Notes under the pieces: model-generated
Seen by the model: only the letters and a program-made list of their open reading frames with translations
The model's database searches: none
Told to the model about the DNA's origin: nothing
In this document: positions 4,627 through 38,155 of the stretch, piece after piece
Numbering within the stretch: the stretch's first letter is position 1
Layout of the letters: the number at the start of each line of letters is the position of its first letter
Made by a program: the position numbers and the translations under genes
Assembly (NCBI GenBank): GCA_964450915.1
Contig: CAYVFG010000002.1
Span: forward strand, 5,379 to 69,378
Length of the DNA stretch: 64,000 bases
Source of the DNA: an uncultured Candidatus Saccharibacteria bacterium
Lineage (GTDB): Bacteria; Patescibacteriota; Andersenbacteria; UBA10190
Reading direction: 5' to 3'

Positions 4627-6651
4627 ATGATTTTAGCGTTCTTAAAACGGCATAAAATAGACGCATATTTAGCAGTAGGACTGTTTCTTATTGCTTTTTT
4701 ACCAAGAGTATTGGGCTTGGGGGCGTTTTTGACTGCAGATGAAAAAAACTGGATCGGCAGATCGTATGAATTTGTGCGCGCATTTCATGATTTGCGATTT
4801 AATGACATGTTGCAGACGACTCACCCGGGAGTTACTACGCTATGGGTATCCGGTCTTGCGGTGATGGTTAAGTCGGCGATCTCACATGTCCAATTTGCGG
4901 ATACGAATTTGATTTATTTCGTGAAAATTACGCAATTTTCCATTGCGCTGGTAAACGCTCTCGCAATTCCTGCAATCTTCATTCTGCTATTGTTGGTACT
5001 AAGAAATCGTTTTCTTGCTGTTTTGGCAACGCTCTTTATTGCGCTCGACCCGTTCATTATAGGATATTCCAGAGTGGTTCATGTGGACGTGCTGATGGGG
5101 AGCTTTTTAACGCTTGCCGTACTAGCGAGCATGCTCTACGCCCGTCACCTTACTCGTCCATGGCTTGTTGCAAGCGCAGTGCTTTCCGTGCTGGCGATTC
5201 TCACAAAAATACCCGCTGTATTTATTTTGCCATTCATTATTGTTGCGCTGATTGCATATCATCCGGAAAAGATTATTTCGTGGCAATTTTTGCGTGATAG
5301 GGTTCGAGATGCTGTTACGTGGGTGCTCATGGGTGTTGTTATCACGCTTCTTATATGGCCCGCATTGCTGTGGGTGCCAAATCCTTCTGGAAACGTGCTG
5401 GAACTCAAGCGCGATATTTCTGATGCTGCCGTAACTCCTCATGACTCAAACGAGGATTATAACTTAGACGCAACGCACTATCCGTACGCATTACTCGATC
5501 GATCAAACCCAGTAACGCTCGTATTCGGAATAGTCGGACTCATGGGAGTAATTGTTCTTGTGGCAAAAAAGAAGGTTCCGCGAGAAATGCTGCTCATTGC
5601 AATATATTTGATCGGATTCGTTCTTATGATGACGCTTGGCGCGAAGAAAGGGGATAGATATATTATTGCCGCATTTTTTGCTCTCGACATATTGGCTGCG
5701 TATGGAGTTGTGTGGGTTGCATCGCTTGTGCCCACGCTCATAAAGCGCTTCAGGGGGAATGATAGAGTGTTTGCATTGCTTACAGTTGGGTATTTGTGCT
5801 TTATTGTACTGTCGTATCATCCATACGAAATTGCATATAGTAACCCGTTTTTTAAGGATAATTTGAGTCAGGAGTTAGGATGGGGCGAAGGGTTGGATCA
5901 GGTTGCTGCCTGGCTGAATACGAATCATCCTGACGCAGTTGTGGCTTCATGGTACCCGGAGGAGCTCGGAACGTTTACATCCGCTACGGTATTGCATATT
6001 AATGCGCACACGCAAAATCCGGTGAACTATATCGTCCTCTATCAGAATATGTTTGGCAGGTCCCCGGATTATTATTCAAATGATTTCATTGACGAATATT
6101 ACAAGAAGCAAATCCCTGTGTACGTTGCGAAAGTTGCGGGCAAAGAATATGCGTGGGTGTATGCAAAGCCAAGCTACACCAGCTCTGTTGGGGATTTGAA
6201 TGCGCAAACTGTTGCGATTCAGGAAATCGAAGTTACTCATAACGATATTGCTGGATTTCAGTTTTTGCCAGCGACGCATTTTGGAAAATCCGATACCGGG
6301 TCGTTTGCTATCAGTGTTTCTAAAACTTTAAACGGTCCTGTGCTATTTGCAACGAACATTTCAGTTACGGACGTAAAAGATACTCAATGGCAGCAGGTCT
6401 TGTTTCCTGATTCTCTCAAGATTGCAAAAGGCGATCATTTGTTTGTGAGCGTTCGAGGGGCTGGGACGACAGATCCGTATCCATCTGTGAGATATTCTCA
6501 AGCAGATATTCGAACTACGCCAATATATATCTCTCGAACTGGTAGTTCGCTTGAGGCGAAGCAAAAAACAGGAACAATGGCCATTCAATTGCTCTATCGC
6601 GATATTCAGGACAAGATTTCTACGGAACTAGAGGAAAAATTGCTGAAATAA
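4627..6651 (+). CDS. GT-C membrane glycosyltransferase, paralog family A. PMT_2/ArnT-like membrane domain plus a periplasmic C-terminal domain of about 280 aa.
   Basis: N-terminal PRVLGLGAFLTADEKNWIGRSYEF...HPGVTTLW. C-terminal GWGEGLDQVAAWLNTNHPDAVVASWY. Paralogous to 20725, 24710 and 36587. Confidence 0.65.
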   Translation: MILAFLKRHKIDAYLAVGLFLIAFLPRVLGLGAFLTADEKNWIGRSYEFVRAFHDLRFNDMLQTTHPGVTTLWVSGLAVMVKSAISHVQFADTNLIYFVKITQFSIALVNALAIPAIFILLLLVLRNRFLAVLATLFIALDPFIIGYSRVVHVDVLMGSFLTLAVLASMLYARHLTRPWLVASAVLSVLAILTKIPAVFILPFIIVALIAYHPEKIISWQFLRDRVRDAVTWVLMGVVITLLIWPALLWVPNPSGNVLELKRDISDAAVTPHDSNEDYNLDATHYPYALLDRSNPVTLVFGIVGLMGVIVLVAKKKVPREMLLIAIYLIGFVLMMTLGAKKGDRYIIAAFFALDILAAYGVVWVASLVPTLIKRFRGNDRVFALLTVGYLCFIVLSYHPYEIAYSNPFFKDNLSQELGWGEGLDQVAAWLNTNHPDAVVASWYPEELGTFTSATVLHINAHTQNPVNYIVLYQNMFGRSPDYYSNDFIDEYYKKQIPVYVAKVAGKEYAWVYAKPSYTSSVGDLNAQTVAIQEIEVTHNDIAGFQFLPATHFGKSDTGSFAISVSKTLNGPVLFATNISVTDVKDTQWQQVLFPDSLKIAKGDHLFVSVRGAGTTDPYPSVRYSQADIRTTPIYISRTGSSLEAKQKTGTMAIQLLYRDIQDKISTELEEKLLK

Positions 6652-6702
6652 AAAGAGCCATACAGGAATAAACGTTGTATGACTGATGTTGTGGGGCTGG
6701 GC

Positions 6703-7146
6703 TTATGTTGGGTCAACCCACTGAACTTCCAACTTCTTTGCGATCACCACGCAGAAGAGGCGGACTGTAATCAAGTCCCCGATGGTTGATATCTTAGGCT
6801 GCACGTAGTTCCAATTTGTAATAGTTGGGAACTTTTGTTGAGCCGCCTCCAGGATTTCGGGGGTTAATTCACCGGAAAGCTGCATGTCTTTGAAGCGACT
6901 GAGCGTGTGAGGATGGAAATCGGAGGAAGAGAGCTTGATGCTAAAGGTTCGTTCGAGACGGAATGCAATATCCAGGATATCGATGGATTCTCCACCGAGG
7001 TCATCCATAAACAACATATCCAAAGGCTTTTTTGTGGACTGGGCGAAGTCGTCATCGTCCAGGCCCAGGGCCTCCATGAGCACACCCTTTATAGCCAGAA
7101 AGATTGTTTCTGGCGTCCAAGTAGTCTGTTTTGATAGTGCCGGCAT
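6703..7146 (-). CDS. Carrier-protein-like protein (phosphopantetheine-attachment-type motif) with a C-terminal extension of about 75 aa.
   Basis: MDDLGGESIDILDIAFRLE resembles the ACP/PCP DLGxDSLD serine motif. Helix-1-like ETIFLAIKGVLMEALGLDDDDF. Stand-alone gene with its own promoter. Confidence 0.45.
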   Translation of the reverse strand: MPALSKQTTWTPETIFLAIKGVLMEALGLDDDDFAQSTKKPLDMLFMDDLGGESIDILDIAFRLERTFSIKLSSSDFHPHTLSRFKDMQLSGELTPEILEAAQQKFPTITNWNYVQPKISTIGDLITVRLFCVVIAKKLEVQWVDPT

Positions 7147-7199: not shown

Positions 7200-7229
7200 T
7201 TTTTACTACATAAATACTCTATTTGTCAA
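7200..7229 (-). promoter_or_regulatory. Sigma70-like promoter for the carrier-protein-like gene: TTGACA, 18-nt spacer, TAAAAA (read on the minus strand).
   Basis: Reverse complement of 7224-7229 is TTGACA and of 7200-7205 is TAAAAA. A GAAAGAGAG Shine-Dalgarno-like stretch lies about 10 nt before the ATG at 7146. Confidence 0.3.
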
Positions 7230-10021
7230 TATTTCTTTTTGTATGGGAATGGTATTGCGTATATGACCACGCATGCGATGATTCCTAGCACTGTGAGGAT
7301 TTCTGCAGTATGCACGGCGGGGGAGATGTATCTGAATGACACGATATGCGATCCTGCTGGTACTTGGGCTGCTTTAAACATGGTATCTGCTTTCATCTGA
7401 GGCGCTATCTTGCCGTCGATGTATGTTTGCCATTGGGGAAGCGTGCTATCCGTTACCACGAGGTATGCTGTTTTGTTTGTTGTTACTTGGACATCTACCC
7501 GTGTTTCTGTGTATGAGGTAATAGTTGCGGCAGCCTGCATTGTAATGTCCGGTTGATTATCGGTAAGATCGGGTGGTGTTGGAGCTGAAATATATACTAG
7601 TGACTTCGGATCAAAATCTTTGCTTCTCATTTGTGCTCGAATTTCATCATCCGCAGCAACGAGCGTTGCATGAGGCACCATAAATGCCTTTGGATATGCA
7701 TCTTTATTCTCGTATAATCGAACGTTACTGTCCCCAGTATCTGCAACATCAATAACTTTGTAGCCAGCATCAATCATAGGATCGTTTGTTTGTCCGTAAT
7801 CAAGTGATTGAGTGAAATGCGTAATACCAACGAGATTTACCAATGATCGATTCCGAGTGAGTGCGTGAACACCATCTCCATCGAACGCATCTGAATCATT
7901 TGCAAAGAATGAATCTACGAATTCTCGATAAGGGCGAATAGATAATGCCCCGATCCAGCGGGCGCTGGATGCACCTGCTACTGCTTGCATGTTGCGTACC
8001 AGCAAAGAGCTGTCTAAATCATGGGTAAGCGGATATTGCGCAGTATACTGAACGCTGAGAGGTTTTTTCGATACTGCTAGCTGTTTCGGAGTAGGGTTTT
8101 CAACTCTCATGAAGTAGGAGTCGGATTCATCGTTAATACTTGGGCTCATGAATAATTTCATGTTTGTATGTTCGGTGCTTGAAAATACAAGCATAAGATC
8201 TTTCTTGTTGCTTTCTGGTATTTGGGGGAAGCAGATTGTCTGATTTACTTTCTTAAATGCGTCTGCTGATGAAATGCTGGTGCGATACCATATCGTACCA
8301 GTTCGGCCGGATTGTACGGTAAGGTTTAGGTGAGAATTAGTATCGGAATCTGCCTGGATAGGTATAAGGAGACAGGATAAGTTTGACTGAAGAATGGTAA
8401 GTGGCTGATACACTGAAAATTTTGGAGATATATAATCAGAAAGCGTAATTTTTACATGAGGGTTGCCTGTGACGGGAAGATGTTCTGCTGCATACAGACG
8501 AGCAGGAAGTCCGGTATCGTGTTTGAATTCTTGGAGATCCTGAGCGAATGTAGATACTGCAAGCGCTTCGTGAGTTGCAACCCGAGGATTGTAATTCCAT
8601 CCGTATCCGATAAGGGTAATTGCTACTATCACTGGGATAGTCCAATAGAAAGTGCGGAATAATGAAACAATAACTGCAATAACCCCTACCGCTATCAGGA
8701 TAATAAAGCCGTGATTCCAGGAAAGACGTTCTGTCAGTATAGCCACAGCGTCTGTATTCTTCGTTGCGTATATCCAAAAGGGAAGAACGATAAGAAGAAA
8801 CGGCACCAGTATTGCGGAGAATGTTTTTGCTATTTTGGATGCTAGAGATGTTGATGCGTGTTCAATAATATCTTGCAACCCCGCAACAGCAAGTAACACC
8901 ATTCCAACGTCGAAAAAGAATACGAATCGTCCAACTACTCCTATGGTCTGAATGTAATGATTATTTACTAAAAATTGATACACAATCGAATATCGCCCAA
9001 GCATCAGGGTGATGCCAGTTACTACCAATATCAATCCAGATGTTCGTTCAATGCGCTTTGTGCGCCAATTGATTAGTGCAATACCTGCGAGCATGATCGG
9101 GATAATTCCGGTATATGCTGCTAATTCTTGAAATCCTTTCGGTCCGAAGTAATTATCGTGATCTCCAAATATGTAGGGGAAAATAAGAGTAATCGAGTCA
9201 TATGGGGGATAGCTGAATTCAAACAGCTCAGTGTAGGGCAAACCTGCTGCACGTTCTGTTTCCGGAACGAATTCTTGCAACGGCAGGATTGCTAAAGCGG
9301 AAAGGCAAACTCCCAAAATTCCCGCGAATATAGTGAGAGCGATTTTTTTACCAGCACCCTTTACGTTCTGTTTGATAGTTGGAATAAATGTGGTGAGCCC
9401 TAAAACCCCTGCTATGAAAAAGACGTACGCCACAACTTGCGGCTGCCCGCTCATTGCAATTGCTGCCGCGACGATTGCAAGAGTTGCTGAGTTTTTAACC
9501 GAGGGCTTTTTCAGTAACACATCTATTGTAATAAGCAACAATGGCAGAAGCATTGTGCTTGTATAGAAATTGACGTGATTCAAATGTCCGATAGAAAATC
9601 CGCAGTAGGCAAAGAGAACAGCACCTAGACTTGCAGCGGCGGGGTGGAATAGTCGCCTTCGCAAATAGGCGTACATGCACACACTGCCTATTAGGAAATA
9701 CAGAACAATAGACGCCTGAAGTAGGATGACAGGGGGTACATATAAAGCGCGCAAGATAAGGTGGATAGGGGTAAAGAAGCCCAGTTGACCCCATGCTAAC
9801 AGAGGCTGGCCGAATCCGAACTCGTTGCTCCACAGCGGCAGCTGCCAGTGATGTTGAAACTGCGCATAGACTGTTTCAATGGGGTAATAGATGATTTTAA
9901 GATCATCTAAAAAATACATTTGCTGGCCGGAAATAATTGGGCTGAAAAATACGAGCCAGCTTACAAGGACGAGTCCGATTCCAATAAATTGAGGCTTGAT
10001 ATTCATACGTTTATTTTTCAC
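7226..10021 (-). CDS. YfhO-family-like large membrane protein (931 aa) with a long periplasmic C-terminal domain.
   Basis: N-terminal region FFSPIISGQQMYFLDDLKIIYYPIETVY...LPLWSNEFGFGQPLLA resembles bacterial YfhO. Many TM helices. Overlaps the upstream gene by 11 nt. Confidence 0.6.
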   Translation of the reverse strand: MKNKRMNIKPQFIGIGLVLVSWLVFFSPIISGQQMYFLDDLKIIYYPIETVYAQFQHHWQLPLWSNEFGFGQPLLAWGQLGFFTPIHLILRALYVPPVILLQASIVLYFLIGSVCMYAYLRRRLFHPAAASLGAVLFAYCGFSIGHLNHVNFYTSTMLLPLLLITIDVLLKKPSVKNSATLAIVAAAIAMSGQPQVVAYVFFIAGVLGLTTFIPTIKQNVKGAGKKIALTIFAGILGVCLSALAILPLQEFVPETERAAGLPYTELFEFSYPPYDSITLIFPYIFGDHDNYFGPKGFQELAAYTGIIPIMLAGIALINWRTKRIERTSGLILVVTGITLMLGRYSIVYQFLVNNHYIQTIGVVGRFVFFFDVGMVLLAVAGLQDIIEHASTSLASKIAKTFSAILVPFLLIVLPFWIYATKNTDAVAILTERLSWNHGFIILIAVGVIAVIVSLFRTFYWTIPVIVAITLIGYGWNYNPRVATHEALAVSTFAQDLQEFKHDTGLPARLYAAEHLPVTGNPHVKITLSDYISPKFSVYQPLTILQSNLSCLLIPIQADSDTNSHLNLTVQSGRTGTIWYRTSISSADAFKKVNQTICFPQIPESNKKDLMLVFSSTEHTNMKLFMSPSINDESDSYFMRVENPTPKQLAVSKKPLSVQYTAQYPLTHDLDSSLLVRNMQAVAGASSARWIGALSIRPYREFVDSFFANDSDAFDGDGVHALTRNRSLVNLVGITHFTQSLDYGQTNDPMIDAGYKVIDVADTGDSNVRLYENKDAYPKAFMVPHATLVAADDEIRAQMRSKDFDPKSLVYISAPTPPDLTDNQPDITMQAAATITSYTETRVDVQVTTNKTAYLVVTDSTLPQWQTYIDGKIAPQMKADTMFKAAQVPAGSHIVSFRYISPAVHTAEILTVLGIIACVVIYAIPFPYKKKY

Positions 10022-12173
10022 TTTCTGGATAGTACGGAACGATACCCGTCATATTAATAATAATATCCCCCGCCTTCGCTGAAGCTTCGGCGGGCAAGCC
10101 TGCCAGAGAGTCTGCATATATAATATCTGCGTTCGGGTTTTTTGCATACAGTCTGAATAGATACGCATTTAAGCTTGTTTGTTGATCGGGGGTAATGCCT
10201 ATAATAATAATCCTTTTTTCTTGCGGCGTATTTGTTTCTTCATGAAGCAATTGCCGATATGCATATTGGGTATATGCGGATTGTTCGCGGGCAAAACGTG
10301 TAAGGTTCTGATCTCGGGCAACTACAAAGCCGTATATGCATACAAGTATAAATAGCGCATACCAAATACCATTCCATTTTTTAGGGATGATGCGTTGTGC
10401 TATTGCAACGATTGCGAGGCTGGTTCCGAAGATTGCAAGCGTTAACCATCGAGAGCGCCAATCACTAGTAAATAGAAGAAACGGCCCAACGAACAGTAAC
10501 CACCAAAGATAACTAAATACTAGAATATTCCTTGTGCGCGCATGCTTCCAAAAAGCTACAATACTCGCTATCGCTACTACTATAATAATTACTCCCGGGT
10601 AATATGGACCGGCAGTTTTAAGCCGCCATAGTTCCAAGGTATTTGATAGAAACGATTCTAAGCGATTTGTATATGCAGTTTGCGGCCATAACCGCTGTTC
10701 TGCGGTAAAGCTGGTATATATAACGACATTTCGAACAATATTGATCGGATTTGCCGAGAGTGCGTATGTTTTGTCCGTATGCTTATGCTCGGGGAGCGTT
10801 GGGTCGCCAAGCATCGCCGTATTAACGACGAGGAATGCGCCTGCCATGAGTATGTAGGGCAATATATTGCCAAGTATGTGCTTGAGATTACGTTTTGAAA
10901 TTCCAGAAACAAGTTCGATGCCTGCGAGCGCAATCGGGAGAACGATGACGTATTCTTTTGAGAATAACGCAATAACAAACGAAATGATGCTGGCGTAGAA
11001 TATTTTTTTATTTCCCGAATCCTTCCATTTGAAATATAAAACAGCTGACAGCATTGCAAATATCGAAGCGAGCAAATCTTGCACAGAACTCCACCAGTAT
11101 AAAAGGCCTATTTTGGAACTGTGCGACATCCACAGAGCAACAGCAAGCAAGCTTGCTGAGCGAGAAGCTGTGATGCGATGTGCTAGTACGAATAAGCAGC
11201 ATGCTGTTCCTGCGAACAGCAACATATTCAAGAAGTAATACAAACCCGCATCGGGCGGGAGGACTAGGTGGAGCAAGAGCGGGTAGAGCGAAAAGCTTAT
11301 CGGCCTGTAAAAATCGAAACCAAACTGAGATGCCGGATCTGCGTCTGTGTATCTATGCGGAGTAAGGAGTAGCAATGGATTGTGCTGCCACAGCTGTGCG
11401 ACCCGAACAAGAATGGGTACATCGTCGCTATAAAAAAATAAATGTGTTGCAGGCCAATATAGTACAAGCGATGTAATAATTATGATCGCAAAGTATGCAT
11501 GATTTTTTCCATGCAATTTCATGTTTCTGTCTTTGATAACGGGGAGTTGCTGAAAAGTTTTTTGTCGCATGAGAAAAATTGCAGCTACGCATATCATGAC
11601 TCCGAGCCATACTCCTCTTTGATGCGGCAGCGCAAGCCATCGGACTAGTTGCAGCGCAATCGTTGGTTTTTCATACTCGATAAGGCCTAGTGATCCTTGT
11701 TTTTGTATCCCTGCTTGCGTCACGACGCTCGTAGGGTCGAGTGTTGCATCCGATTGATACGCAATTTTTATTGCGTGTGCTTTAGGAAGCTGCTGTGCGC
11801 TGATAGTAATGCTGTACTGCTTACCTGAGCTCATCGCTTGGCGTGGTAGCGCAATACGGCCAAGATTTTTTACTGGAACGTTTTGTTCGGAAATGATGCG
11901 ATTTTCAGAAATATCTTTAATACCTATATGGGCCAGGTCGTCTGGGTATTGAGATTCTGCATATAGGCCGATTGCAGAAAGGCCTCGAGAAGCTGCCGTA
12001 AATTCTTCTGTGAGTGGATATGCCGCAAATACCTGGTGTTTATGTGTGCTGTCGGGTGTTCTGTGTACTGCAGTACGCTCACTTGCGCGGATTGATAAAA
12101 CGTAGCATAGCGTAATGCTTAGTACAGCGAAAAGCGCTATTTTTGCCTGTTTTTGCCACTTTTTCATGTTCAA
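10011..12173 (-). CDS. Large membrane protein (720 aa): signal anchor, an N-terminal periplasmic module of about 200 aa, then about 12 TM helices. Probably GT-C-like.
   Basis: The hydrophobic pattern supports this layout. The N-terminal module carries the recurrent LTEEFTAASRGLSAIGLYAES motif shared with other proteins in the locus. Confidence 0.5.
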   Translation of the reverse strand: MNMKKWQKQAKIALFAVLSITLCYVLSIRASERTAVHRTPDSTHKHQVFAAYPLTEEFTAASRGLSAIGLYAESQYPDDLAHIGIKDISENRIISEQNVPVKNLGRIALPRQAMSSGKQYSITISAQQLPKAHAIKIAYQSDATLDPTSVVTQAGIQKQGSLGLIEYEKPTIALQLVRWLALPHQRGVWLGVMICVAAIFLMRQKTFQQLPVIKDRNMKLHGKNHAYFAIIIITSLVLYWPATHLFFYSDDVPILVRVAQLWQHNPLLLLTPHRYTDADPASQFGFDFYRPISFSLYPLLLHLVLPPDAGLYYFLNMLLFAGTACCLFVLAHRITASRSASLLAVALWMSHSSKIGLLYWWSSVQDLLASIFAMLSAVLYFKWKDSGNKKIFYASIISFVIALFSKEYVIVLPIALAGIELVSGISKRNLKHILGNILPYILMAGAFLVVNTAMLGDPTLPEHKHTDKTYALSANPINIVRNVVIYTSFTAEQRLWPQTAYTNRLESFLSNTLELWRLKTAGPYYPGVIIIVVAIASIVAFWKHARTRNILVFSYLWWLLFVGPFLLFTSDWRSRWLTLAIFGTSLAIVAIAQRIIPKKWNGIWYALFILVCIYGFVVARDQNLTRFAREQSAYTQYAYRQLLHEETNTPQEKRIIIIGITPDQQTSLNAYLFRLYAKNPNADIIYADSLAGLPAEASAKAGDIIINMTGIVPYYPESEK

Positions 12174-12220: not shown

Positions 12221-12835
12221 ATGCGCATTGCATGGTATGTATGTTTCATCACTTTGATCGTATTCGTATTTTTATACGCGTGGTATTTGCCTGCAAACAA
12301 TGCGAAACAACTTATTCTCGATTTGCCCGCGAACGGAATCAGCAAGAGTATTGCAGTTACGAATGATACGAAGATAGTTCAGGAGATTAGGCTAGAGCAA
12401 TCCGCAAATAGCATAGAATTGCCATTATGCGTTGGGCAGCCTAGTGCACCTGGAATGATTCATCTTACTGTTCTCAAGGATAGCAAGGTTATTACGGGAC
12501 AGGATCAGTATATTGAACCAGATATTGTATTTGCGTTGCCTGGTGCGGGAATTTCTGGGGATGTTACGCTTGAATTTGTATTTTCCGGAATAGAAAAGAA
12601 TAGCGATATTGCCATTCCTACTGCATTCGGAAAATATGCGAATTTGTCAGGGACGGTTACGCAATATGTATTGCAAGGCAATCAGTGGAAATCAGTTGAT
12701 ACCAGAAACGGCAATATTGCATTGACGCTGTACCATATTCCGCCAAAAAATCATGTATTTGCGATGGTAGAGTCATTTATAGTACCAATGATCGGAATAA
12801 TCGTATTCATAATTCTATGCGCAAAGAATTTGTAA
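12221..12835 (+). CDS. Membrane-anchored protein: N-terminal TM, a beta-rich periplasmic module, and a C-terminal TM. The track ORF begins at 12143, but the likely start is Met27 at 12221.
   Basis: AAGAGG lies 13 nt upstream of the ATG at 12221. The module motif KIVQEIRLEQSANSIELPLCVGQ...GMIHLTVLKD is shared with 18347, 56552 and 10011. Confidence 0.5.
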   Translation: MRIAWYVCFITLIVFVFLYAWYLPANNAKQLILDLPANGISKSIAVTNDTKIVQEIRLEQSANSIELPLCVGQPSAPGMIHLTVLKDSKVITGQDQYIEPDIVFALPGAGISGDVTLEFVFSGIEKNSDIAIPTAFGKYANLSGTVTQYVLQGNQWKSVDTRNGNIALTLYHIPPKNHVFAMVESFIVPMIGIIVFIILCAKNL

Positions 12836-14550
12836 TTATTTCGCTTGTTGGATTGCTGCTTGCAGGTATTGCGACGGCGCCATTATATGTTCATCCCGAA
12901 TATATAAGCAATCATGGTGATATCAATCGAGGATTGATATATAACGCAATTGCGAAGCGAGATATACTGAGCGGCCATCTGCCTGCGTGGAATCAATACA
13001 TTTGCGGAGGCATGCCGCTTGTGGGCGATTTGGAATCGTGGTTTCTGCATCCGATATTTTTCCTGACCTTTCCGTTTCCCGAGGTATTGGCGATGAAGAT
13101 AGGGTATACGCTGGTACTTTTCAGCTCGTTTGTGGGCTTTTATGCATTGGCTCGAATTATTTTAAAATTCAAGATTACAGGTGCTGCGCTGTTTGCAATA
13201 ATTGTAGCGTTTGGCGGGTACATCTCAGCGCACTTAGCAGAAGGGTATTACGTATGGACAGCAAGCGCATACGTGCCATGGTTTTTGTTGTCCGCCATGT
13301 TGGCATTGAGAAATTTGAAATTCATCCCGTTTGCCGGATTGATGCTCGCATTCATGTTTGGAGCAGGAAGTATGCATCTAGCCGTATACAGCATGCTTTT
13401 TATAGGGATTATATATGCATTCCCTATGGCTGAAAGCAAATTTTTCCGACGCGTTACACTATGGCTGGCGATCGGCGCGTTTTTCGTAATCCTATCTGCC
13501 GCAAAGCTTCTCCCGGCGCTTTCCCTTCTTACGGCAACCAGTTCCAGAGAAGGATTTGCGCCCGCTATTACAATGCTTCCGGAAATACTATTTGGCAGAG
13601 GATTGCTTGGGCCGGTCATGCAGGCCGGGCAAATAATTCGATGGGGAGAATTCGACGAATATATCGGAATGCTTACGGGAACTGTGGCTGTTATCGGCGC
13701 CAGCATATTTCGAAAAAGGCTATGGCATGCATACAAAGCATTTTTGGTCGCGAGCATTATAATGGCAGTTATTGCATTTTTGCCGTTACCGATTACGCAT
13801 GGATTTATCAGTCATGTTTTTGATTTATTCCGCATGCCAAGCAGGGTGTTGCTGTTTGCGGTATTTGGGATCGCGCTTGTTGCAGGATACGCAGTTGACG
13901 CAATTGCTTTGCCTCGAGGTGTTTTTGCGATAAAAGCGTTGATACTGCTTGTTATTACGCTGGATCTTCTTTCGAACGACATAACGCTTTTTTCTCGAAC
14001 GTTTACGGTGCCTCTTCCGGAAAAGCATGCGGAGACAACGTTTCAGCGAGTCAGCCATGCGTACACTTCTGGGGATGAGGTGTATTATCGGGCAATATAT
14101 TTGGATTTTCTGGAAAATAGAGGGACGAAGGATGTGTGCAGGTTTTATCAAGCGGGGCCGTTTAGTAGATCAATTGACGAAACGGATCCGAGGTATATCT
14201 CTCAAGGAGAAATATATTTGGATGATGCAAAATCCGGAACCGTCTCATATACAATGAATACCAGGAGCGAATATAGTATTCACGCAAACATTCAGTCAGC
14301 AACGCGAATTATCATTAATCAAAATTATTATCCGGGCTGGGTGGCAAGTTCCGGGCAAAGAGTTGAAAATTATCATGGCGTTATCGCTATTTCTGTCGTG
14401 CCTGGAATATATGATATTACGCTGAGGTACAATCCGAATACGGTGTATTGGGGAATGGGAATATCTGCGCTTGGTTTTTTGATTGGCTTGCTGGTGATTA
14501 TGAGAAGATCTGGTCGTACCACTGGCGATACCAATCAACAAACCTCTTAG
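12817..14550 (+). CDS. YfhO-family-like membrane protein (577 aa).
   Basis: SGHLPAWNQYICGGMPLVGD near the N-terminus is a YfhO-like motif. About 14 TM helices. Overlaps the preceding gene by 19 nt in another frame. Confidence 0.6.
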   Translation: MRKEFVIISLVGLLLAGIATAPLYVHPEYISNHGDINRGLIYNAIAKRDILSGHLPAWNQYICGGMPLVGDLESWFLHPIFFLTFPFPEVLAMKIGYTLVLFSSFVGFYALARIILKFKITGAALFAIIVAFGGYISAHLAEGYYVWTASAYVPWFLLSAMLALRNLKFIPFAGLMLAFMFGAGSMHLAVYSMLFIGIIYAFPMAESKFFRRVTLWLAIGAFFVILSAAKLLPALSLLTATSSREGFAPAITMLPEILFGRGLLGPVMQAGQIIRWGEFDEYIGMLTGTVAVIGASIFRKRLWHAYKAFLVASIIMAVIAFLPLPITHGFISHVFDLFRMPSRVLLFAVFGIALVAGYAVDAIALPRGVFAIKALILLVITLDLLSNDITLFSRTFTVPLPEKHAETTFQRVSHAYTSGDEVYYRAIYLDFLENRGTKDVCRFYQAGPFSRSIDETDPRYISQGEIYLDDAKSGTVSYTMNTRSEYSIHANIQSATRIIINQNYYPGWVASSGQRVENYHGVIAISVVPGIYDITLRYNPNTVYWGMGISALGFLIGLLVIMRRSGRTTGDTNQQTS

Positions 14551-29778: not shown

Positions 29779-30495
29779 ATGATTACTTCACAGCGCACGA
29801 TTATTTTGATTCCGACCTATAACGAAGCCGAAAATATCGGTCTTATCCTTCGTCAAATTCAATCCGTGGATCCTGGCTTTAACGTATTGGTGTTAGATGA
29901 CAATTCTCCTGACGGGACAGCGCAGGTTGTGGAAGCATTTCATAAGGAGCATCCACCTGTTTCTGTATTAGTACGCACGAGCAATAGGGGGTTTGCTCAG
30001 TCATACCTCGATGGATTCAAGCGAGTATGTGCTGGAAGCGAATATGATGCCGTTATTACTATGGATGCTGATTTCTCGCATGAGCCAAAAGAATTACCGG
30101 AACTTCTTACGCTTTTAAATAACGGTGCAGATGTTGTGATCGGTTCTCGCTATGCAAAGCATCAGAAATTTCCGCATATTACATTGTGGCGCCGCATGAT
30201 GAGCCGATTTGCAAATGGGTATGTTCGCACGGTGCTTGGTATGCCAATCAGCGATTGCACTGCCGGGTTTATCGCGATGCGCACAGAGGCTCTTCGATCA
30301 TTGAATATGCAAGGCATACGGACAGAAGGATACGGATTTTTATTTCAGCTCAAGTACCGTGCCTATAAAAGCGGCCTTCGTTTAGCGGAACATCCGGTAG
30401 CATGGCCTGAGCGGCATCAAGGCAGCTCAAAAATGAATTTGAAACGGATATTCGAATCCTTCCTGTTGCCGTGGAAGATTAAATTCGGCTCTTAA
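29779..30495 (+). CDS. GT2 polyprenol-phosphate sugar synthase, Dpm1/GtrB-like. The track ORF starts at 29638; the likely start is MITSQ at 29779.
   Basis: IILIPTYNEAENIG and VLVLDDNSPDGT, ITMDADFSHEP DxD region, and GSRYAK. Confidence 0.8.
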   Translation: MITSQRTIILIPTYNEAENIGLILRQIQSVDPGFNVLVLDDNSPDGTAQVVEAFHKEHPPVSVLVRTSNRGFAQSYLDGFKRVCAGSEYDAVITMDADFSHEPKELPELLTLLNNGADVVIGSRYAKHQKFPHITLWRRMMSRFANGYVRTVLGMPISDCTAGFIAMRTEALRSLNMQGIRTEGYGFLFQLKYRAYKSGLRLAEHPVAWPERHQGSSKMNLKRIFESFLLPWKIKFGS

Positions 30496-32534: not shown

Positions 32535-33260
32535 ATGGATCAGTCTTCACGAAAGCCGAAAGTCATTGTTCTAGTGCCTTCGTATCGAGCCGGGAAGCAT
32601 GTGGTGGAAACGTATAACAGAATACCGAAAGAGGCTGTAGATGACATTATTATCGTAGATGATGCATCTCCCGATGATACGTTCGAATATGCAAAAACGT
32701 TGCCTGCAAAGGTATTTCGAAATGAAACAAACAAAGGATACGGAGGAAATATGAAAGTGTGCCTGCAGAAAGGGCTTGATGCAGGAGGAGATATTTTTAT
32801 TGAATTGCATGGAGACGGACAGTACGATGCAATGGATATTCCTCGAGCCGTTGCAGCTCTTCGTCCGACTGATGGCATGCTAATAGGAACTCGGGTAATT
32901 GCTTCGAATAAAGCGCTCCATAATGGGATGCCGCTCATCAAGTACGCGATGAATAAAATATTAACGTTTATTGCAAACGTTTTATTGGGCAGTAATTTAA
33001 CAGAGTTTCACTCCGGATTTCGCGTATATACTCGGAAGTTCTTAGAGACAGTCGATTTCGTCCATGATTCCGATGATCACTTGTTTAGCTTTGAAACAAT
33101 CGTCCAGGCATTGAAAGCCGGCTTTACAGTGGCAGAAATTCCTGTTGTTTGCACGTACTATGACGGGGTAACCCAGATGGGTCTCCGCAAGGGGGTAAAA
33201 TATACGCTCGAAATGCTCGGTACGGTACTTCTTTTTTCGATTGGAGTCCGCAAGAATTGA
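32535..33260 (+). CDS. GT2-family glycosyltransferase (Dpm1-like fold).
   Basis: VIVLVPSYRAGKHV and IIIVDDASPDDT; HGDGQYD as DxD-like. Confidence 0.8.
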   Translation: MDQSSRKPKVIVLVPSYRAGKHVVETYNRIPKEAVDDIIIVDDASPDDTFEYAKTLPAKVFRNETNKGYGGNMKVCLQKGLDAGGDIFIELHGDGQYDAMDIPRAVAALRPTDGMLIGTRVIASNKALHNGMPLIKYAMNKILTFIANVLLGSNLTEFHSGFRVYTRKFLETVDFVHDSDDHLFSFETIVQALKAGFTVAEIPVVCTYYDGVTQMGLRKGVKYTLEMLGTVLLFSIGVRKN

Positions 33261-33294: not shown

Positions 33295-34224
33295 ATGCCA
33301 AGAAAGCTTCCCTATGCGAAAGCCGTCATTACTGGAAGCACCGGTTTCGTCGGAGAGCGTTTAATGCTCGAATTGGCCTCCCGCGGAATTGAAGTCCACG
33401 GGCTTGCACTGGGAAAAAATAAAAATCTTGCTAAGGTGCGGGGCATTCATATGCACATAGGAGATATTACGGATAAAAAATCGATGCAACGCTTTATGAG
33501 AAAAGTCCGTCCGGAAGCTGTGTTTCATCTTGCTGCATACGGCACGTTTGTGAACGAGCAAGATGTTCAAAGAATGATTGATGTAAACATTAAAGGTGCT
33601 TCCATTCTTCTGGAAACCAGCAGGGAAGTTGGCTGCAAGGCATTTATTAGCACAAGTTCCGCGAAAGTGTATGCTACAGGACGCACTCCTATAAAAGAAC
33701 ATCAAGAAATGTTCCCGTGGGACAATTACGCTGTTACAAAGACTGGCGCGGAACTCTTCTGTAAGCTCTATTCCGAAAAACATTCCTTTCCCGTAACAAC
33801 ATTCCGACTATGTCCAGTGTACGGGCCTGGGGACGATCTATCACGATTTATTCCTACTGCAATCGGGGCTGTGATCAATAGCACTCCGTTTACCTGTTCG
33901 GTTGGTAGTCTCGTGCGCAATTTTACATATATTGATGACGCTATCGAAGCATTTATTCAAGCATCAAGAAGAATGAAGGGCACATATGAAGTATTTAATA
34001 TTGGGTATAAAAAGGCCCATTCGTTTAATGAAATTTTAAGTGCTATCCAAAAGGTTACAGGAAAAAAAATGGATATTATTGTTCCCCCGTCGAAGCAATT
34101 TGTTGATCATTCGTGGGTGCTCGATATGCAAAAAGCAGAAAAGGTATTGAAATGGAGGGGAAAAGTGTCGCTCATGGAAGGGATAGCTCGGACAGTTGGG
34201 TGGTATACTACGAAGGAACTATGA
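33295..34224 (+). CDS. NAD-dependent epimerase/dehydratase (extended SDR). The track ORF starts at TTG 33241; the likely ATG is 33295.
   Basis: VITGSTGFVGERL Rossmann motif and YAVTK catalytic pair. Confidence 0.8.
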   Translation: MPRKLPYAKAVITGSTGFVGERLMLELASRGIEVHGLALGKNKNLAKVRGIHMHIGDITDKKSMQRFMRKVRPEAVFHLAAYGTFVNEQDVQRMIDVNIKGASILLETSREVGCKAFISTSSAKVYATGRTPIKEHQEMFPWDNYAVTKTGAELFCKLYSEKHSFPVTTFRLCPVYGPGDDLSRFIPTAIGAVINSTPFTCSVGSLVRNFTYIDDAIEAFIQASRRMKGTYEVFNIGYKKAHSFNEILSAIQKVTGKKMDIIVPPSKQFVDHSWVLDMQKAEKVLKWRGKVSLMEGIARTVGWYTTKEL

Positions 34225-35795
34225 AATTATCTTCTTTCTTCGCGATGCTTACGCGGCCGCGGGTTATGTATATTCTTTTAGAAGCGTGCATCATCCTTTC
34301 GCTCGTTGGCGCCGTTGCAGGAGAAAGAACCATTATCGCCTCCCAGCGAAGAATTATGCCGGCAGGGGATGTATTTAATTTTCAAAGCATCGCACGAAAT
34401 ATCCGCTATTTTGATTATCCTATCCACGAGAAACGACTTCCGGGATATCCTCTAACCCTCTTGATTGGTACAGAACTTGGCTTTGACCCAACGCTTACTG
34501 GAATTGCTGTAAGTATTATGGCTTCTGCAGGAACAACTGTAGTGCTGTACTTGCTTGGCAGATATTTTAAATGGCCTCGATTACCGCTGGCTGCCGTTCT
34601 TCTGCTCACAAGCGTAGCCCCGCAGCTAACTATTAACGGCGTGCGCCCGCTTGCGGACAGTTATTTTCTATTCTTGATTGTTCTATCGGTATATATGGTC
34701 ACTGCTGCACGAGCAACAAAGGCGTGGGCTATTTGGACAGGACTTATCATCGCGCTGATGGTGTTTACACGATACGAAGGAGGCCCTACTGCAATACTGC
34801 TGCTATTGCTGCTCAGATTTAAGATGCCATGGCGCTTGGTTGGAATCGCTTCATTGCCGCTTCTGATTGCCGGGGTAGTATGGCTGCCGGTCTGGAGACA
34901 CGTGAACGGTTCGTTGAGTGAGTTCGGGTACGCAAAAGATGCGAAGCAAAATGCAAGCATCGAAACCCTCCCGGCTGATTACATGAAGATCGTTGACAGC
35001 TCTGGATTTGGGAAAGCTTGGACAATAGCTGACTTGTGGTCAAATGATAAACAAGTGCGTACGGAGGCAGGCCTGTTGTTTTCAGCTCCAGAATGGTGGC
35101 TAAGCGTGCTTGCAAGCTTCGGATTTATTTGGATTATTATTTCTCTGCGGAAAAAAGCTGCCCCGCTTCTTGTTGCGTTCATTTTGTATCCTGTACTTCC
35201 AGCGTGGTGGTTTACCTATAGTAGGTACGTTGCCCCGATGACCGCCTTTTATTATTTTTGCATGGCTGCAGGAGTGGTTGGGGTATGGCAAATTGTGCTG
35301 TGGATATTAAAGCGGGCGGGTAATCCTATAAAAGTTGCAACTGCTGTCTTGTTAGGATTTCTACTTATTCGTGCAGTGTTTGATGTTTCCCCCATTTTAT
35401 ACAAAGAGGCTGTTGCAAAGGGGCTCGAGAATAATGGAGTAGGATATTCTCTGTATACTGCGCTGCAATCTCTTCGCCATACTCCTGATCGAGTTGCTGT
35501 ATCTTTCGATTATCTCATGGCCTCTATGATGTTCGGCAGCGTGGACAGCCCCAAAGGCGGACTCAACGAAGGACGAGGAGTGTATCTTTCCAACAAACCG
35601 GATGCCACTCCTGCCCAGTTAGCACAATATTTACATGATAAGAAGATAAACATCCTGGTTGATAACGGAGAAAAAGAAGTAGCCCCCGTTGCTGAATATT
35701 TGAAAACTCACAACGAGATTGATCATACGCAAACGTTTACCTGGCCGAGACAAGATAAAAAAATCGACACAACATATCTTTATTACCTTAAATAA
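34221..35795 (+). CDS. Polytopic membrane protein, putative GT-C-like. Start at MKLSS with an ATGA overlap onto the upstream stop.
   Basis: About 12 TM helices and a periplasmic C-terminal region. Translationally coupled to the epimerase. Confidence 0.5.
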   Translation: MKLSSFFAMLTRPRVMYILLEACIILSLVGAVAGERTIIASQRRIMPAGDVFNFQSIARNIRYFDYPIHEKRLPGYPLTLLIGTELGFDPTLTGIAVSIMASAGTTVVLYLLGRYFKWPRLPLAAVLLLTSVAPQLTINGVRPLADSYFLFLIVLSVYMVTAARATKAWAIWTGLIIALMVFTRYEGGPTAILLLLLLRFKMPWRLVGIASLPLLIAGVVWLPVWRHVNGSLSEFGYAKDAKQNASIETLPADYMKIVDSSGFGKAWTIADLWSNDKQVRTEAGLLFSAPEWWLSVLASFGFIWIIISLRKKAAPLLVAFILYPVLPAWWFTYSRYVAPMTAFYYFCMAAGVVGVWQIVLWILKRAGNPIKVATAVLLGFLLIRAVFDVSPILYKEAVAKGLENNGVGYSLYTALQSLRHTPDRVAVSFDYLMASMMFGSVDSPKGGLNEGRGVYLSNKPDATPAQLAQYLHDKKINILVDNGEKEVAPVAEYLKTHNEIDHTQTFTWPRQDKKIDTTYLYYLK

Positions 35796-35804: not shown

Positions 35805-36590
35805 ATGTACAGTGGGGAGCGCATATTGCCGGAAAAAGTATTTAACGTTACATATCAACAGAGTCTTGTAGCATATGAATTTGCAGCAAAGTATTGTGAA
35901 GGCAAGACAGTGTTAGATGTTGCATCTGGGGAAGGATACGGAACATCGGTACTCGGAAAGAGCGCTTCTCGCGCAGTGGGGCTTGATTATAACAAGGCAG
36001 CTATCGATGAGGCTCGAAAAAACTATGCTACTGACACCGTTTCATTCGTTCAAGGCGACCTTCTCAATGCGCCAAGCGTGCTGAACGGGGAATTGTTCGA
36101 CGTAGTGTGCTGTTTCCAGACAATTGAGCATGTGTATAATCACGATGATTTTCTCAAATCGCTGATGGCTGTAACAAAACCGGGAGGATTAATCCTGGTA
36201 AGCACGCCTAATACAAATATGTTTCATAGCTTCAACCCCTATCACGTTCATGAAGTGGATGATGCGGAGATGAGAGATTTATTTGCTCGACATTTCAAAG
36301 AATCTACATTATATGGAGTGTTTGGAGATGAAAGTATTCTGCGGTACAGAACGGGGAAGCAAAAAATTTCCGATCTTATTCTTAGAATTGATTTCTTGAA
36401 AGCGCGCGATTGGATGCCAAAACCGCTGCTTAGGGCAGTGTATGCATTCGTATCACTTTTCTTGATTAAAAAAATAAGTTTCTGGAAGCACTCGAAAGAA
36501 GTGATGCGAGTAACTACGAAAAACTTTCGCGTAAGCGAAGAGGATATTGAACATAGTCTTGATTTTATTGCCGTTGCAAAGAATATATGA
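35805..36590 (+). CDS. Class I SAM-dependent methyltransferase.
   Basis: VLDVASGEGYGT motif I and TKPGGLILVSTP. Confidence 0.75.
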   Translation: MYSGERILPEKVFNVTYQQSLVAYEFAAKYCEGKTVLDVASGEGYGTSVLGKSASRAVGLDYNKAAIDEARKNYATDTVSFVQGDLLNAPSVLNGELFDVVCCFQTIEHVYNHDDFLKSLMAVTKPGGLILVSTPNTNMFHSFNPYHVHEVDDAEMRDLFARHFKESTLYGVFGDESILRYRTGKQKISDLILRIDFLKARDWMPKPLLRAVYAFVSLFLIKKISFWKHSKEVMRVTTKNFRVSEEDIEHSLDFIAVAKNI

Positions 36591-38155
36591 GTGAAAAGCG
36601 TGTCGTATGGATGCTGCTGATAGCCGCTATTTTTTTGCCAAGACTAATCGGTGCTGACTATTTTTTTATTCAAGACGAACAGCCATGGATTGACCGCTCT
36701 CAGACGTACTGGAATGCGTTGTCCTCGGGAGATTTTGTAGGGGCTGTTCAATACCCGCTATCAAATCATCCCGCAATTTCTCTCATGACCGTAGTGGGGC
36801 CGGTAATGAATCTGTACGGCACGTACCATGGCCTTCAGGGAACGTATGCCGATTGGCCCGTTGATGATAAGCGGGAAGCTGCAGTATGGGCGCGATACGC
36901 ATGGGGTATTGCATGCAGTATTGCGCTGCTTGCTCTCGTAAGAGTCGTAGCCAGTATGCAATTATTTAAAAACTCGAGATGGGCAGCAGGGCTCGTTGTT
37001 GTGCTATTCGGGTTGGAGCCGTGGATATTAGGAATTTCTCGCACGGTAAGTGTTGACGTTTTAATGAGTATAGGGGTGGTTGGCATGCTCGTATCTGCCG
37101 TTGTTGCTTTCGAGCGCAAAAATAGATTATGGGTTTGCATATCCGGCGCTTGGTTTGCATTAGCTTTTATTTCAAAATCGCCCGCGTTAATTACTGCGCC
37201 CATTGCGTTATTGCTCGCCAGCTTTGTTCCAGGTTTTTCAATGCGCGAAATGGGAAAACGCTCAATAGCATGGATAGGAAGTGCGTATTTTTCAATGATT
37301 ATTTTATGGCCCCCTTTTCTCTTTCATCCAATACAGCGGCTTATTGACGTGCTTGCGCGCGCAGAACTTCATTCTACGGTTCAGGAAGTTTATTACTGGC
37401 CAGGGGTTCATCCTCCGTTATTTATTTTCACCCTATCTGCATTCGCAACGATTGGATGTTTGCTATATATCTGGAATCGTCTGGCGGAAGTAAAGCAAAC
37501 AGGTTGGAATTTTTTTGCATTAGACATCGTATTATTGGCAGGTGTGTGGCATGGCCTCGTACTGCTGTACTTGCATGGCGATCAGGCTCGAAAAAATTTA
37601 CCAGTACTAGCATTGCTTGCGTTTATTGGAGCAATAGGCTGGGTATGGGTATTGCAACGGCGCAGAGTTGCAAAACCATTCATAGTAATAGGGCTCATCA
37701 TCTTGCAAGGCATATTTATGTGGCCATATTTTCCGCATGTCATAAGTTCATATAACATTCTTTTCCCCTCAGTGGGCGGGAAGAGACTATTAGTTGACGT
37801 AGGTAATAGCTCCCGCCTTATTGCTGATTATATTAATAGCAGCAATCCTAAAGAAGTATTTGCGATACCGATGGATAGCTTAGTTGTTCCTTATTTGGAT
37901 AGCAACAAGAGGGATGCAATACGCGGGTTTCCCTCAGAGGGCTACCTGAAAAATCTTGATCCTGCGGTAACAAAGATTATTATACCGATGAGTTTTCCTG
38001 CTCGAGTCAATTTTGATCCTACTACCAAGAATATTTTAAAAGATTTGGCTTCGTATAAGCCTGAAAAGACACTCTTTATTCGAGATATACCGATGTTTTA
38101 TGTATACACGCTTCATCCAATAGAATATACTTTACAGCATGAAACAGGCATATAG
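36587..38155 (+). CDS. GT-C membrane glycosyltransferase, paralog family A.
   Basis: PRLIGADYFFIQDEQPWIDRSQTYW...NHPAISLM. Overlaps the upstream stop by 4 nt. Confidence 0.65.
   Translation: MSEKRVVWMLLIAAIFLPRLIGADYFFIQDEQPWIDRSQTYWNALSSGDFVGAVQYPLSNHPAISLMTVVGPVMNLYGTYHGLQGTYADWPVDDKREAAVWARYAWGIACSIALLALVRVVASMQLFKNSRWAAGLVVVLFGLEPWILGISRTVSVDVLMSIGVVGMLVSAVVAFERKNRLWVCISGAWFALAFISKSPALITAPIALLLASFVPGFSMREMGKRSIAWIGSAYFSMIILWPPFLFHPIQRLIDVLARAELHSTVQEVYYWPGVHPPLFIFTLSAFATIGCLLYIWNRLAEVKQTGWNFFALDIVLLAGVWHGLVLLYLHGDQARKNLPVLALLAFIGAIGWVWVLQRRRVAKPFIVIGLIILQGIFMWPYFPHVISSYNILFPSVGGKRLLVDVGNSSRLIADYINSSNPKEVFAIPMDSLVVPYLDSNKRDAIRGFPSEGYLKNLDPAVTKIIIPMSFPARVNFDPTTKNILKDLASYKPEKTLFIRDIPMFYVYTLHPIEYTLQHETGI

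Follow-up and report, generated by a model that had tools for sequence, protein, structure and literature searches.

Four genes within a 64,000-nucleotide stretch of contig CAYVFG010000002.1 (the window, whose numbering is used throughout), from a Candidatus Andersenbacteria host, were found to encode one family of membrane glycosyltransferases of the C fold (GT-C). The family has a 3+1 structure, with three members carrying the motif GWGEGL beyond their last transmembrane (TM) helix and one divergent sister. Paralog 1 (4627..6651, plus strand; 674 residues) combines a GT-C core, the GWGEGL loop, an alpha/beta domain and a C-terminal beta-sandwich. Paralog 2 (20725..22167, minus strand; 480 residues) is a minimal GT-C with the alpha/beta C-terminal domain. 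Paralog 3 (24710..26188, minus strand) is listed at 492 residues from a TTG at 26188; an ATG at 26170, giving 486 residues, fits the ortholog lengths of 481-485 residues better and is probably the true start. The divergent paralog (36587..38155, plus strand; 522 residues) has the same scaffold with DVGNSS instead of GWGEGL. We consider it probable that these genes are anciently diverged paralogs of a single uncharacterised subfamily of GT-C_A enzymes (the PMT_2/ArnT-PMT clan), situated in an envelope glycan island and operating by the mechanism proposed below.

Homology among the four was assessed by all-against-all BLASTP. Paralogs 1, 2 and 3 aligned over their full lengths at 28-30% identity, with paralog 1 matching the other two GWGEGL copies at 28% (E 2e-54 and 2e-52) and paralog 2 matching paralog 3 at 30% (E 3e-47). 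Between the divergent paralog and these three, identity was 22-26% (E 1e-17 to 3e-11). When all four were aligned with MAFFT, the motifs fell in shared columns and 31 positions were invariant, including P26, R27, D38, E39, W42, S148, R149, D154, K194, R344, P399, Y400 and N406. Furthermore, a profile of 31 orthologs of the divergent paralog could be aligned along its whole length with the family profile of 100 sequences (hhalign; probability 100%, E 1.1e-61), and the (L)VDVGNGS conserved in that clade falls exactly on (L)GWGEGL. The family profile scored the four open reading frames (ORFs) at 323-688 bits, compared with no more than 31 bits for the other GT-C ORFs of the window, a clear separation, although the profile itself includes the four sequences; on 28131..29798, 22977..24494 and 2591..4012 it reached 15-31 bits, through the TM core alone. 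The notion that hydrophobic membrane proteins of separate origin resemble one another in these motifs by compositional chance has the general low complexity of TM segments in its favour and nothing else. Full-length E-values of 1e-47 to 1e-54, positional conservation, the profile alignment, the separation by profile score and the presence of GWGEG across phyla reduce its probability to a negligible level, and compositional coincidence was ruled out.

A preliminary description of the window had attributed a C-terminal GWGEGL motif and an N-terminal signature to all four genes, and had read them as GT-C paralogs of one scaffold. A six-frame motif scan of the whole window located exact GWGEGL at three sites, one each in paralog 1 (5878..5895, plus strand), paralog 2 (21004..21021, minus strand; residues 383-388) and paralog 3 (25007..25024, minus strand). 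In 36587..38155 the motif is absent, and DVGNSS occupies the homologous position (37796..37813, plus strand) according to the hhalign column correspondence. A relaxed form of the N-terminal signature, PR(V/L/I) followed by DE..W, is common to all four copies. Its second element reads HPGVTT in paralog 1, QPGVTT in paralog 2, HPGITT in paralog 3 and HPAISL in the divergent paralog. Taken literally, the full expressions as first written match one or two copies at most; LNT(N/K)(H/P) fits paralogs 1 and 3, and YY fits paralogs 2 and 3. The original observation is thus partly confirmed. The single scaffold is upheld by BLASTP, by the motif columns standing in register and by the end-to-end profile alignment, and the GT-C assignment by the domain and fold matches that follow.

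Pfam PMT_2 (PF13231; threshold 26.1 bits) was matched above threshold by paralogs 2 (33.0 bits) and 3 (39.1 bits), as well as by two orthologs of paralog 1 (P0097, 51.1 bits; P0100, 32.2 bits), and a precomputed PF13231 match exists for most orthologs of the divergent paralog. For Pfam PMT (PF02366; threshold 22.7 bits), paralog 2 scored above threshold (28.7 bits) and paralog 1 below it (16.9 bits), with no match for the remaining two. An AlphaFold2 (AF2) model of paralog 2, built from a 100-sequence alignment, has a mean pLDDT of 96.1 and a pTM of 0.95. Its Foldseek matches in the PDB at E <= 0.1 are GT-C enzymes without exception, and all 23 matches at E <= 1e-3 belong to this class, with TM-scores of 0.43-0.58 for full-length matches. 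The list comprises STT3 (2e-7), AglB, ALG12/ALG9, ArnT, Pmt4, DPY19, AftD, AftA, EmbA/B/C and PimE. ArnT (5f15) gave the best TM-score (0.58), with Pmt4 at 0.55 and oligosaccharyltransferases (OSTs) at 0.43-0.52. Names given to homologs in the source databases include 'glycosyltransferase family 39 protein' and 'phospholipid carrier-dependent glycosyltransferase', and several are called GT39 or Dol-P-Man protein mannosyltransferase; the general enzyme class had therefore already been recognised.

The model contains approximately 11 hydrophobic helices, and lysine and arginine residues cluster in the short loops predicted to be cytoplasmic. The predicted topology places the N-terminus inside and the C-terminal domain outside the membrane. 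In GT-C enzymes the first long loop, with its acidic motif, is extracytoplasmic; the model and the charge bias both place external loop 1 (EL1) and its Asp-Glu (DE) motif outside, in agreement with this general rule. The C-terminal domain had been called periplasmic in the preliminary description. Its location beyond the membrane agrees with the 11-TM model and the charge bias, and for a Patescibacteria host 'extracytoplasmic' is the better term.

Conservation was counted in the 100-sequence family alignment, with residues numbered according to paralog 2. D36, E37, W40, P65, P226, R320, P364 and G385 are kept in all 100 sequences, and R131, D136, K178, G383, E386 and G387 in 99; N371 is kept in 97, Y321 in 96, L388 in 95 and W384 in 91. 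The resulting family signature can be written DE ... SRxxHxD ... LTK ... KxDRY ... HPY..YN..GWGEGL. The DE motif of EL1 is present in all four window copies, at 4738..4743 (plus strand) in paralog 1, 22057..22062 (minus strand; D36-E37) in paralog 2, 26072..26077 (minus strand) in paralog 3 and 36674..36679 (plus strand; D30-E31) in the divergent paralog. In EL5, just before TM10, paralog 2 carries KSDRY (21205..21219, minus strand), which contains the invariant R320 and Y321. The equivalents are KGDRY at 5647..5661 in paralog 1, KGDRY at 25238..25252 in paralog 3 and DQARK at 37580..37594 in the divergent paralog.

The sole solved structure reached by a family-profile sequence search was ArnT of Cupriavidus metallidurans (5ezm; E 2.2e-4). 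A profile of the four paralogs alone retrieved nothing meaningful from the PDB, and the 100-sequence profile was needed to reach ArnT. D136, K178 and Y321 align with positions 161, 206 and 348 of the 5ezm chain, which most likely represent ArnT D158, K203 and Y345 after a three-residue construct offset. Roles for these three ArnT residues have been described, with Y345 close to the lipid phosphate; ArnT D55/E56 is the counterpart of the PMT catalytic motif D77/E78, the DE being shared with Pmt1 and Pmt2, and an arginine conserved just before TM10 touches the carrier phosphate in several GT-C structures (PMC7801869). The invariant R320, at the start of helix 319-339, is presumably this phosphate-contacting arginine.

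Beyond the last TM helix (344-362) lies a conserved extended segment, (H/Y)PY..A.YN.L.P....KLGWGEGLE. All but one of the 100 family members, which range across Patescibacteria and Chloroflexota, have the GWGEG loop. In the AF2 model of paralog 2 it leads into a small alpha/beta domain, residues 388-480, whose helices span 388-398, 409-415, 423-428 and 448-456 alongside five short strands. The MIR domain of PMTs, with which the preliminary description had proposed comparing this region, is an all-beta trefoil inserted in a loop, the large luminal one that separates TM7 from TM8. None of the four copies gave a Pfam MIR match, and EL4 spans only about 47 residues and is helical in the model. Taken with the alpha/beta fold, these results lead us to conclude that the C-terminal domain is not MIR.

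Paralog 1 possesses approximately 160 further residues beyond about residue 515. The modelled C-terminal part (residues 500-674; 6124..6648, plus strand; AF2 pLDDT 91.8) is all-beta and forms a beta-sandwich. Its best Foldseek matches are weak and comprise the FjoAcXE carbohydrate-binding module (CBM; 7tok_B), CBM61, CBM35, CBM6, CBM27 and CBM36, the Cwp84 lectin-like domain and a phage baseplate protein, and DUF6212 matches weakly in the same region of paralog 1 orthologs. From the predicted structure we tentatively regard this domain as a probable glycan-binding module.

These features bear on the possibility that the four proteins are PMT-type protein O-glycosyltransferases, which would transfer sugar to serine or threonine of surface or secreted proteins such as S-layer proteins or pilins. 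The PF02366 match of paralog 2, the DE motif shared with Pmt1/Pmt2 (PMC7801869), the Pmt4 fold match (TM-score 0.55) and the naming of homologs as GT39 or Dol-P-Man protein mannosyltransferase are all consistent with such a role. We nevertheless judge it unlikely. There is no MIR domain and EL4 is short, ArnT rather than a PMT is the only significant sequence match in the PDB, the CBM-like domain of one paralog suggests a glycan ligand, and the surrounding genes, among them many for GT4, GT9 and TagF-like enzymes, form an island of polysaccharide or teichoic-acid-like character.

The donor type is suggested by gene fusions. About 15 independent orthologs of paralog 2 are single polypeptides of 699-729 residues in which an N-terminal glycosyltransferase family 2 (GT2) domain is joined to the GT-C (P0004-P0011, P0015, P0018-P0020, P0029 and P0043; loci L001, 9926..12151, and L005, 9332..11455). 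In L001 and L005 the frame runs through GT2 and GT-C without interruption. By similarity, the fused GT2 stands nearest to the dolichol-phosphate mannose synthase of Pyrococcus (5mlz; 9e-17, the whole catalytic domain being covered), to ArnC and to GtrB (sll0501). Its NCBIfam similarities are to AglJ, Dol-P (dolichyl-phosphate) hexose transferase and PpgS, all below equivalog cut-offs. Given the N-in topology, the fused GT2 would reside in the cytoplasm. Both the fusion and the ArnT-like residues speak for a polyprenyl-monophosphate-monosaccharide as the donor of the GT-C.

Four stand-alone GT2s of the polyprenyl-phosphate-sugar-synthase type are encoded in the window, all below curated cut-offs, and are candidate donor synthases. 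They lie at 29638..30495 (plus strand; NCBIfam AglJ, ArnC and Dol-P hexose transferase, and Pfam GT2), 32535..33260 (plus strand; NCBIfam PpgS, AglJ and Dol-P hexose transferase), 52171..52875 (minus strand; NCBIfam similarity) and 63316..64000 (minus strand). The last of these is open to the right end of the window and has at least 228 codons; it is listed as a 172-residue ORF (63316..63834), and truncation of the gene was rejected because the frame simply runs past the window edge.

An activity resembling that of OSTs or ligases would instead involve en bloc transfer of an oligosaccharide from a polyprenyl-pyrophosphate carrier, with the GWGEG loop acting as WWDYG does in STT3/AglB/PglB (GT66). 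In OSTs, WWDYG stands where the external domain begins, a short distance past the final TM helix. The family likewise has a Trp-acidic-Gly motif shortly past its last TM helix, in a comparable position, and the best Foldseek E-values are to STT3 and AglB. The window also contains Wzx-like and MurJ flippases, and its numerous cytoplasmic GT4s could build a lipid-pyrophosphate-linked oligosaccharide. Conversely, neither WWDYG nor an STT3 Pfam match was found in the family copies, and no OST appeared in the PDB sequence search at E <= 10. The OST TM-scores are no better than those of ArnT or Pmt4, and the fusion partner is a GT2 of the polyprenyl-monophosphate-sugar synthase type, which indicates monophosphate-monosaccharide donors. 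We therefore hold an OST-like activity to be improbable.

The divergent paralog was examined through a comparison of 99 GWGEGL-type with 31 DVGNGS-type sequences. The fourth clade retains the catalytic core, with PR, DE..W..R, P65, P124, R131, D136, K178, WP, R320, P364, N371, G385, G387 and R443. In its own DVGN(G/S)S motif, D404 and G406 are invariant, and N407, G408 and S409 are kept in at least 90% of its members. Fixed differences between the clades are concentrated in EL5 (K317D, D319A and Y321K, converting KxDRY to DHARK) and in the motif loop (G383D, E386N and L388S, converting the GWGEG loop to DVGNGS); others are Y262H, Y365H, Y437P, D123E and F125W, and H134 is lost, mostly to serine (77%). 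The concerted, charge-changing nature of the substitutions in EL5 and the motif loop suggests that the two form one retuned substrate-binding site beside the lipid-phosphate-binding Arg/Tyr, and that the fourth paralog may use a different donor or acceptor.

These losses could alternatively signify that one or more copies, the DVGNSS protein especially, are non-catalytic accessory or scaffold proteins, or are associated with a flippase in the manner of Agl23. Three copies show weak similarity to the Agl23 family TIGR03663 (25.4, 18.1 and 38.3 bits; E 8e-10 to 1e-3), the divergent paralog showing none, and residues conserved in the family, E386, Y321 and H134 among them, are missing from the fourth clade. 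The Agl23 scores are, however, far below the curated cut-off of 126.25 bits, and membership of that family was rejected. The fourth clade keeps DE, R131, D136, K178 and R320 invariant, and the conservation of the motif that replaces GWGEGL speaks for a function under selection. A non-catalytic role is thus very improbable. The GWGEGL and DVGNGS clades offer a natural experiment in the retuning of GT-C substrate specificity.

Each window paralog has orthologs of its own in other Andersenbacteria (47-86% identity), separated by a large score margin from the other paralogs. Paralog 1 orthologs range from 43 to 86% identity, the highest being in a Lac Pavin Andersenbacteria metagenome-assembled genome (MAG; L027), and the identity maxima for paralog 2, paralog 3 and the divergent paralog are 63%, 65% and 67%, respectively. 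Orthologs of paralog 3 occur at 47-65% identity in L004, L005, L007, L013 and L040. The same trio of sizes recurs in L004 (485/489/673 residues) and L005 (481/707/671 residues), and many proteins of the divergent clade and of the paralog 2 clade are found on contigs of matching size. Chloroflexota homologs are at roughly equal distance from all copies. The existence of separate orthologs for each copy, together with the trio in L004 and L005, indicates by sequence comparison that the duplications are older than the diversification of the Andersenbacteria.

The preliminary description had taken the four copies to suggest a diversification of substrate or acceptor on one scaffold. This point is supported, and with the corrections given here the preliminary interpretation is largely borne out. 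Each copy heads its own ortholog group, one has acquired a CBM-like addition and one has a rewritten motif and EL5 loop. The copies are not a local expansion in this genome: the duplications go far back, and other species have kept the trio too.

When one genome was scanned for each GTDB species, 549 loci encoding relatives were recovered. Their hosts are Andersenbacteria, other Patescibacteria (including a Woesebacteria genome) and Chloroflexota (Anaerolineae, Chloroflexia and Caldilineae), with a few Actinomycetota MAGs and one Hydrothermarchaeales archaeon. The usual arrangement is two to four copies within 10 kb, in Chloroflexota also. The source names of the homologs are Candidatus Andersenbacteria, Parcubacteria or Patescibacteria, and for the more distant ones (27-30% identity) Anaerolineae, Chloroflexota or Chloroflexaceae. 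The GWGEGL members in the Hydrothermarchaeales archaeon (L021) and the Actinomycetota MAGs L037 and L055 are 30-34% identical and fall outside the principal range of the family, Patescibacteria and Chloroflexota; horizontal transfer may account for them, or contamination during binning. L004, L006-L008 and other TPA_asm MAGs titled 'uncultured Candidatus Saccharibacteria' contain orthologs at 53-65% identity in the same gene arrangement; the taxonomic labels in such titles may be generic or mistaken.

Three of the four paralogs adjoin genes for class I S-adenosylmethionine (SAM) methyltransferases, identified through Pfam. The first (22185..22892, minus strand; Methyltransf_11 and related models) lies directly upstream of paralog 2 with a gap of 17 bp, and shares 82% identity with the methyltransferase that precedes the fused ortholog in L001. 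In L001 the gene order is methyltransferase, epimerase and GT2::GT-C; in the window the methyltransferase is followed by the GT-C, without GT2 or epimerase at that position. The second (26209..26934, plus strand) is divergently oriented beside paralog 3. The third (35805..36590, plus strand) is membrane-anchored, and its stop codon and the start codon of the divergent paralog overlap (ATGA). A 799-residue ortholog, P0147, has a methyltransferase similar to 35805..36590 (66% identity, E 7e-126) fused to the GT-C; it is a single example and may be an assembly or gene-calling artefact. Across the fetched loci, 14 of 117 family members adjoin a methyltransferase, and all but one of these are similar to paralog 2 or paralog 3. 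The transferred sugars may thus be methylated.

The window as a whole consists almost entirely of envelope-glycan machinery. It contains at least six GT4 genes, two GT9 genes, three NAD-dependent epimerases/dehydratases and a C-methyltransferase, together with a MurJ flippase (55005..56555) and a Wzx-like polysaccharide flippase (16535..17806, plus strand; Pfam Polysacc_synt, E 3.4e-15), the latter a candidate translocator of lipid-linked sugars. In addition to the four family members, about a dozen further proteins with 9-15 TM helices are encoded, at 2591..4012, 7226..10021, 10011..12173, 12817..14550, 18347..20728, 22977..24494, 28131..29798, 34113..35795, 38139..40172, 49731..51878, 56552..57832 and 59901..62180. 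Most have a GT-C-like layout of TM1, long loop and helix bundle. Three match PMT_2 and two match YfhO (7226..10021 and 49731..51878), to which 12817..14550 is related; the remainder have no match in Pfam or NCBIfam. Such a density of putative extracytoplasmic glycosyltransferases is extraordinary for a genome of the candidate phyla radiation (CPR).

Several other genes of the island were noted. A TagF-like CDP-glycerol glycerophosphotransferase, a polysaccharide deacetylase and the two GT9 (heptosyltransferase-family) genes (47900..49734, minus strand; 44935..46005; and 52872..53927, minus strand) hint at a polymer that resembles teichoic acid or contains phosphate in some other form. A 147-residue ORF shortly downstream of paralog 1 (6703..7146, minus strand) contains a DDLGGESIDILD stretch resembling the region in which acyl or D-alanyl carrier proteins bear their phosphopantetheine. 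At 712..2586 an asparagine-synthase-like amidotransferase is encoded. The epimerase ORF at 15462..16670 (minus strand) has about 58 residues ahead of its Pfam match and overlaps the flippase gene 16535..17806; its listed start appears to be too long.

Comparison with known systems places the family within a well-known enzyme class, as an uncharacterised ArnT/PMT-like subfamily and not a new kind of system. ArnT (CAZy GT83; 5ezm/5f15) shares with it the GT-C_A fold, DE in EL1 and a C-terminal soluble domain on the outer face. Family residues D136/K178 align with the D158-K203 pair and Y321 with Y345, and the ArnT partner ArnC, a polyprenyl-phosphate-sugar synthase of GT2, is among the best matches of the fused GT2. 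ArnT has 13 TM helices, as opposed to about 11 in the family model. The sequence similarity is marginal and spans TM2 to TM10, so that neither the GWGEG loop nor the HPY..YN segment is covered by the ArnT alignment, which also gave no clear counterparts of ArnT E84, K85 and R270, and the four copies gave no match to the curated NCBIfam ArnT model at E <= 0.01. Lipid A seems an unlikely acceptor in a Patescibacterium, although lipid A synthesis genes were not looked for. PMTs (GT39; yeast Pmt1/2/4 and actinobacterial Pmt) share the GT-C_A fold, the loop 1 DE and the use of a polyprenyl- or dolichyl-phosphate-monosaccharide, the donor type proposed here, and some of the four copies reach the Pfam PMT/PMT_2 thresholds. 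They differ in possessing MIR where the family has its C-terminal alpha/beta domain, and the context of the family indicates no protein acceptor.

A similar logic is seen in the three-component systems GtrA/GtrB/GtrC, CsbB/GtcA/YfhO (teichoic acids) and those for lactococcal cell-wall polysaccharide side chains (PMC7389260, PMC10821137), in which a cytoplasmic GT2 makes a C55-polyprenyl-phosphate sugar, a flippase moves it and an outer-face GT-C decorates a cell-wall polymer. The window has YfhO-family proteins and several GT2s of the polyprenyl-phosphate type. Unlike in these systems, the family GT-C belongs to the PMT_2 clan rather than to GtrC/YfhO, several paralogs occur per locus, and in many orthologs GT2 and GT-C form one polypeptide. 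The mycobacterial PpgS/Rv3779 and Emb/Aft/PimE enzymes and the haloarchaeal AglD/AglS likewise lengthen an envelope glycan on the outer side of the membrane by means of several GT-Cs, each using a polyprenyl-phosphate sugar; the best NCBIfam matches of the window GT2s include PpgS and AglJ, and the fold matches include AftD and Emb. There is no sequence-level membership of these families, and Emb and AftD have large CBM-rich C-terminal domains in contrast to the family's alpha/beta domain of about 100 residues with or without one beta-sandwich. In the glycosyltransferase literature searched, no relevant description of 'GWGEG' was found, and no paper combining GT-C and Patescibacteria was found in the literature searched.

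On this basis we propose the following mechanism. On the cytoplasmic face, a GT2 of the DPM1/ArnC/GtrB type would load a monosaccharide onto polyprenyl phosphate. Epimerases and methyltransferases encoded nearby may modify this sugar, which would be flipped across the membrane on its lipid carrier. At the outer face, the active site would be formed by the EL1 Asp-Glu, D136/K178 and R320/Y321 before TM10, a site common to the three GWGEGL copies, and each GT-C paralog, with its own donor and acceptor specificity, would transfer the sugar to a growing extracytoplasmic acceptor, most likely a cell-wall-associated glycopolymer. The most economical reading of the island would accordingly be the multi-enzyme, partly extracytoplasmic assembly or decoration of a cell-wall glycopolymer, with parallels in the three-component systems of Gram-positive bacteria (PMC7389260, PMC10821137) and in the GT-C sets of mycobacteria.

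A number of results weigh against this proposal. Paralog 1 (21.3 bits) and the divergent paralog (25.8 bits) fall just below the PMT_2 threshold, and none of the four copies matched a curated NCBIfam equivalog model. The top Foldseek E-values belong to OSTs, which use lipid-pyrophosphate donors, and not to ArnT. Neither beside 20725..22167 nor elsewhere in the window was an ortholog or remnant of the fused GT2 detected, the best GT2s being 24-30% identical; the donor synthase for the window copies consequently stays a candidate only. No small flippase of the GtrA/GtcA type was present among the scanned ORFs of at least 150 residues, smaller ORFs not having been surveyed systematically. The co-substitution with EL5 is the single observation suggesting that the GWGEG loop lies near the active site. 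Finally, the PDB matches of the paralog 1 beta-sandwich are weak, with one at E <= 1e-3 and TM-scores of 0.3-0.56.

A more ambitious interpretation joins three propositions, and we regard their combination as conceivable but doubtful. The family would merit the rank of a CAZy family of GT-Cs in Patescibacteria and Chloroflexota. HPY..YN..GWGEG and KxDRY would form a previously undescribed element for recognition of donor or acceptor, in a position analogous to the WWDYG of OSTs. Lastly, three to four paralogs and about ten further GT-C-like enzymes would assemble a complex, partly methylated envelope glycan wholly outside the membrane in a manner resembling that of mycobacteria. CPR/Patescibacteria have tiny genomes and are thought to be host-dependent, yet nearly all of this 64-kb stretch is devoted to envelope-glycan machinery. 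The family signature, the structural model and the Rosetta-stone links to GT2s and methyltransferases offer concrete targets for investigating the surface composition of uncultivated bacteria. If the joint interpretation is true, it would reveal a major and so far unrecognised investment in glycans by ultra-small episymbionts, possibly in the surface by which they attach to their hosts.

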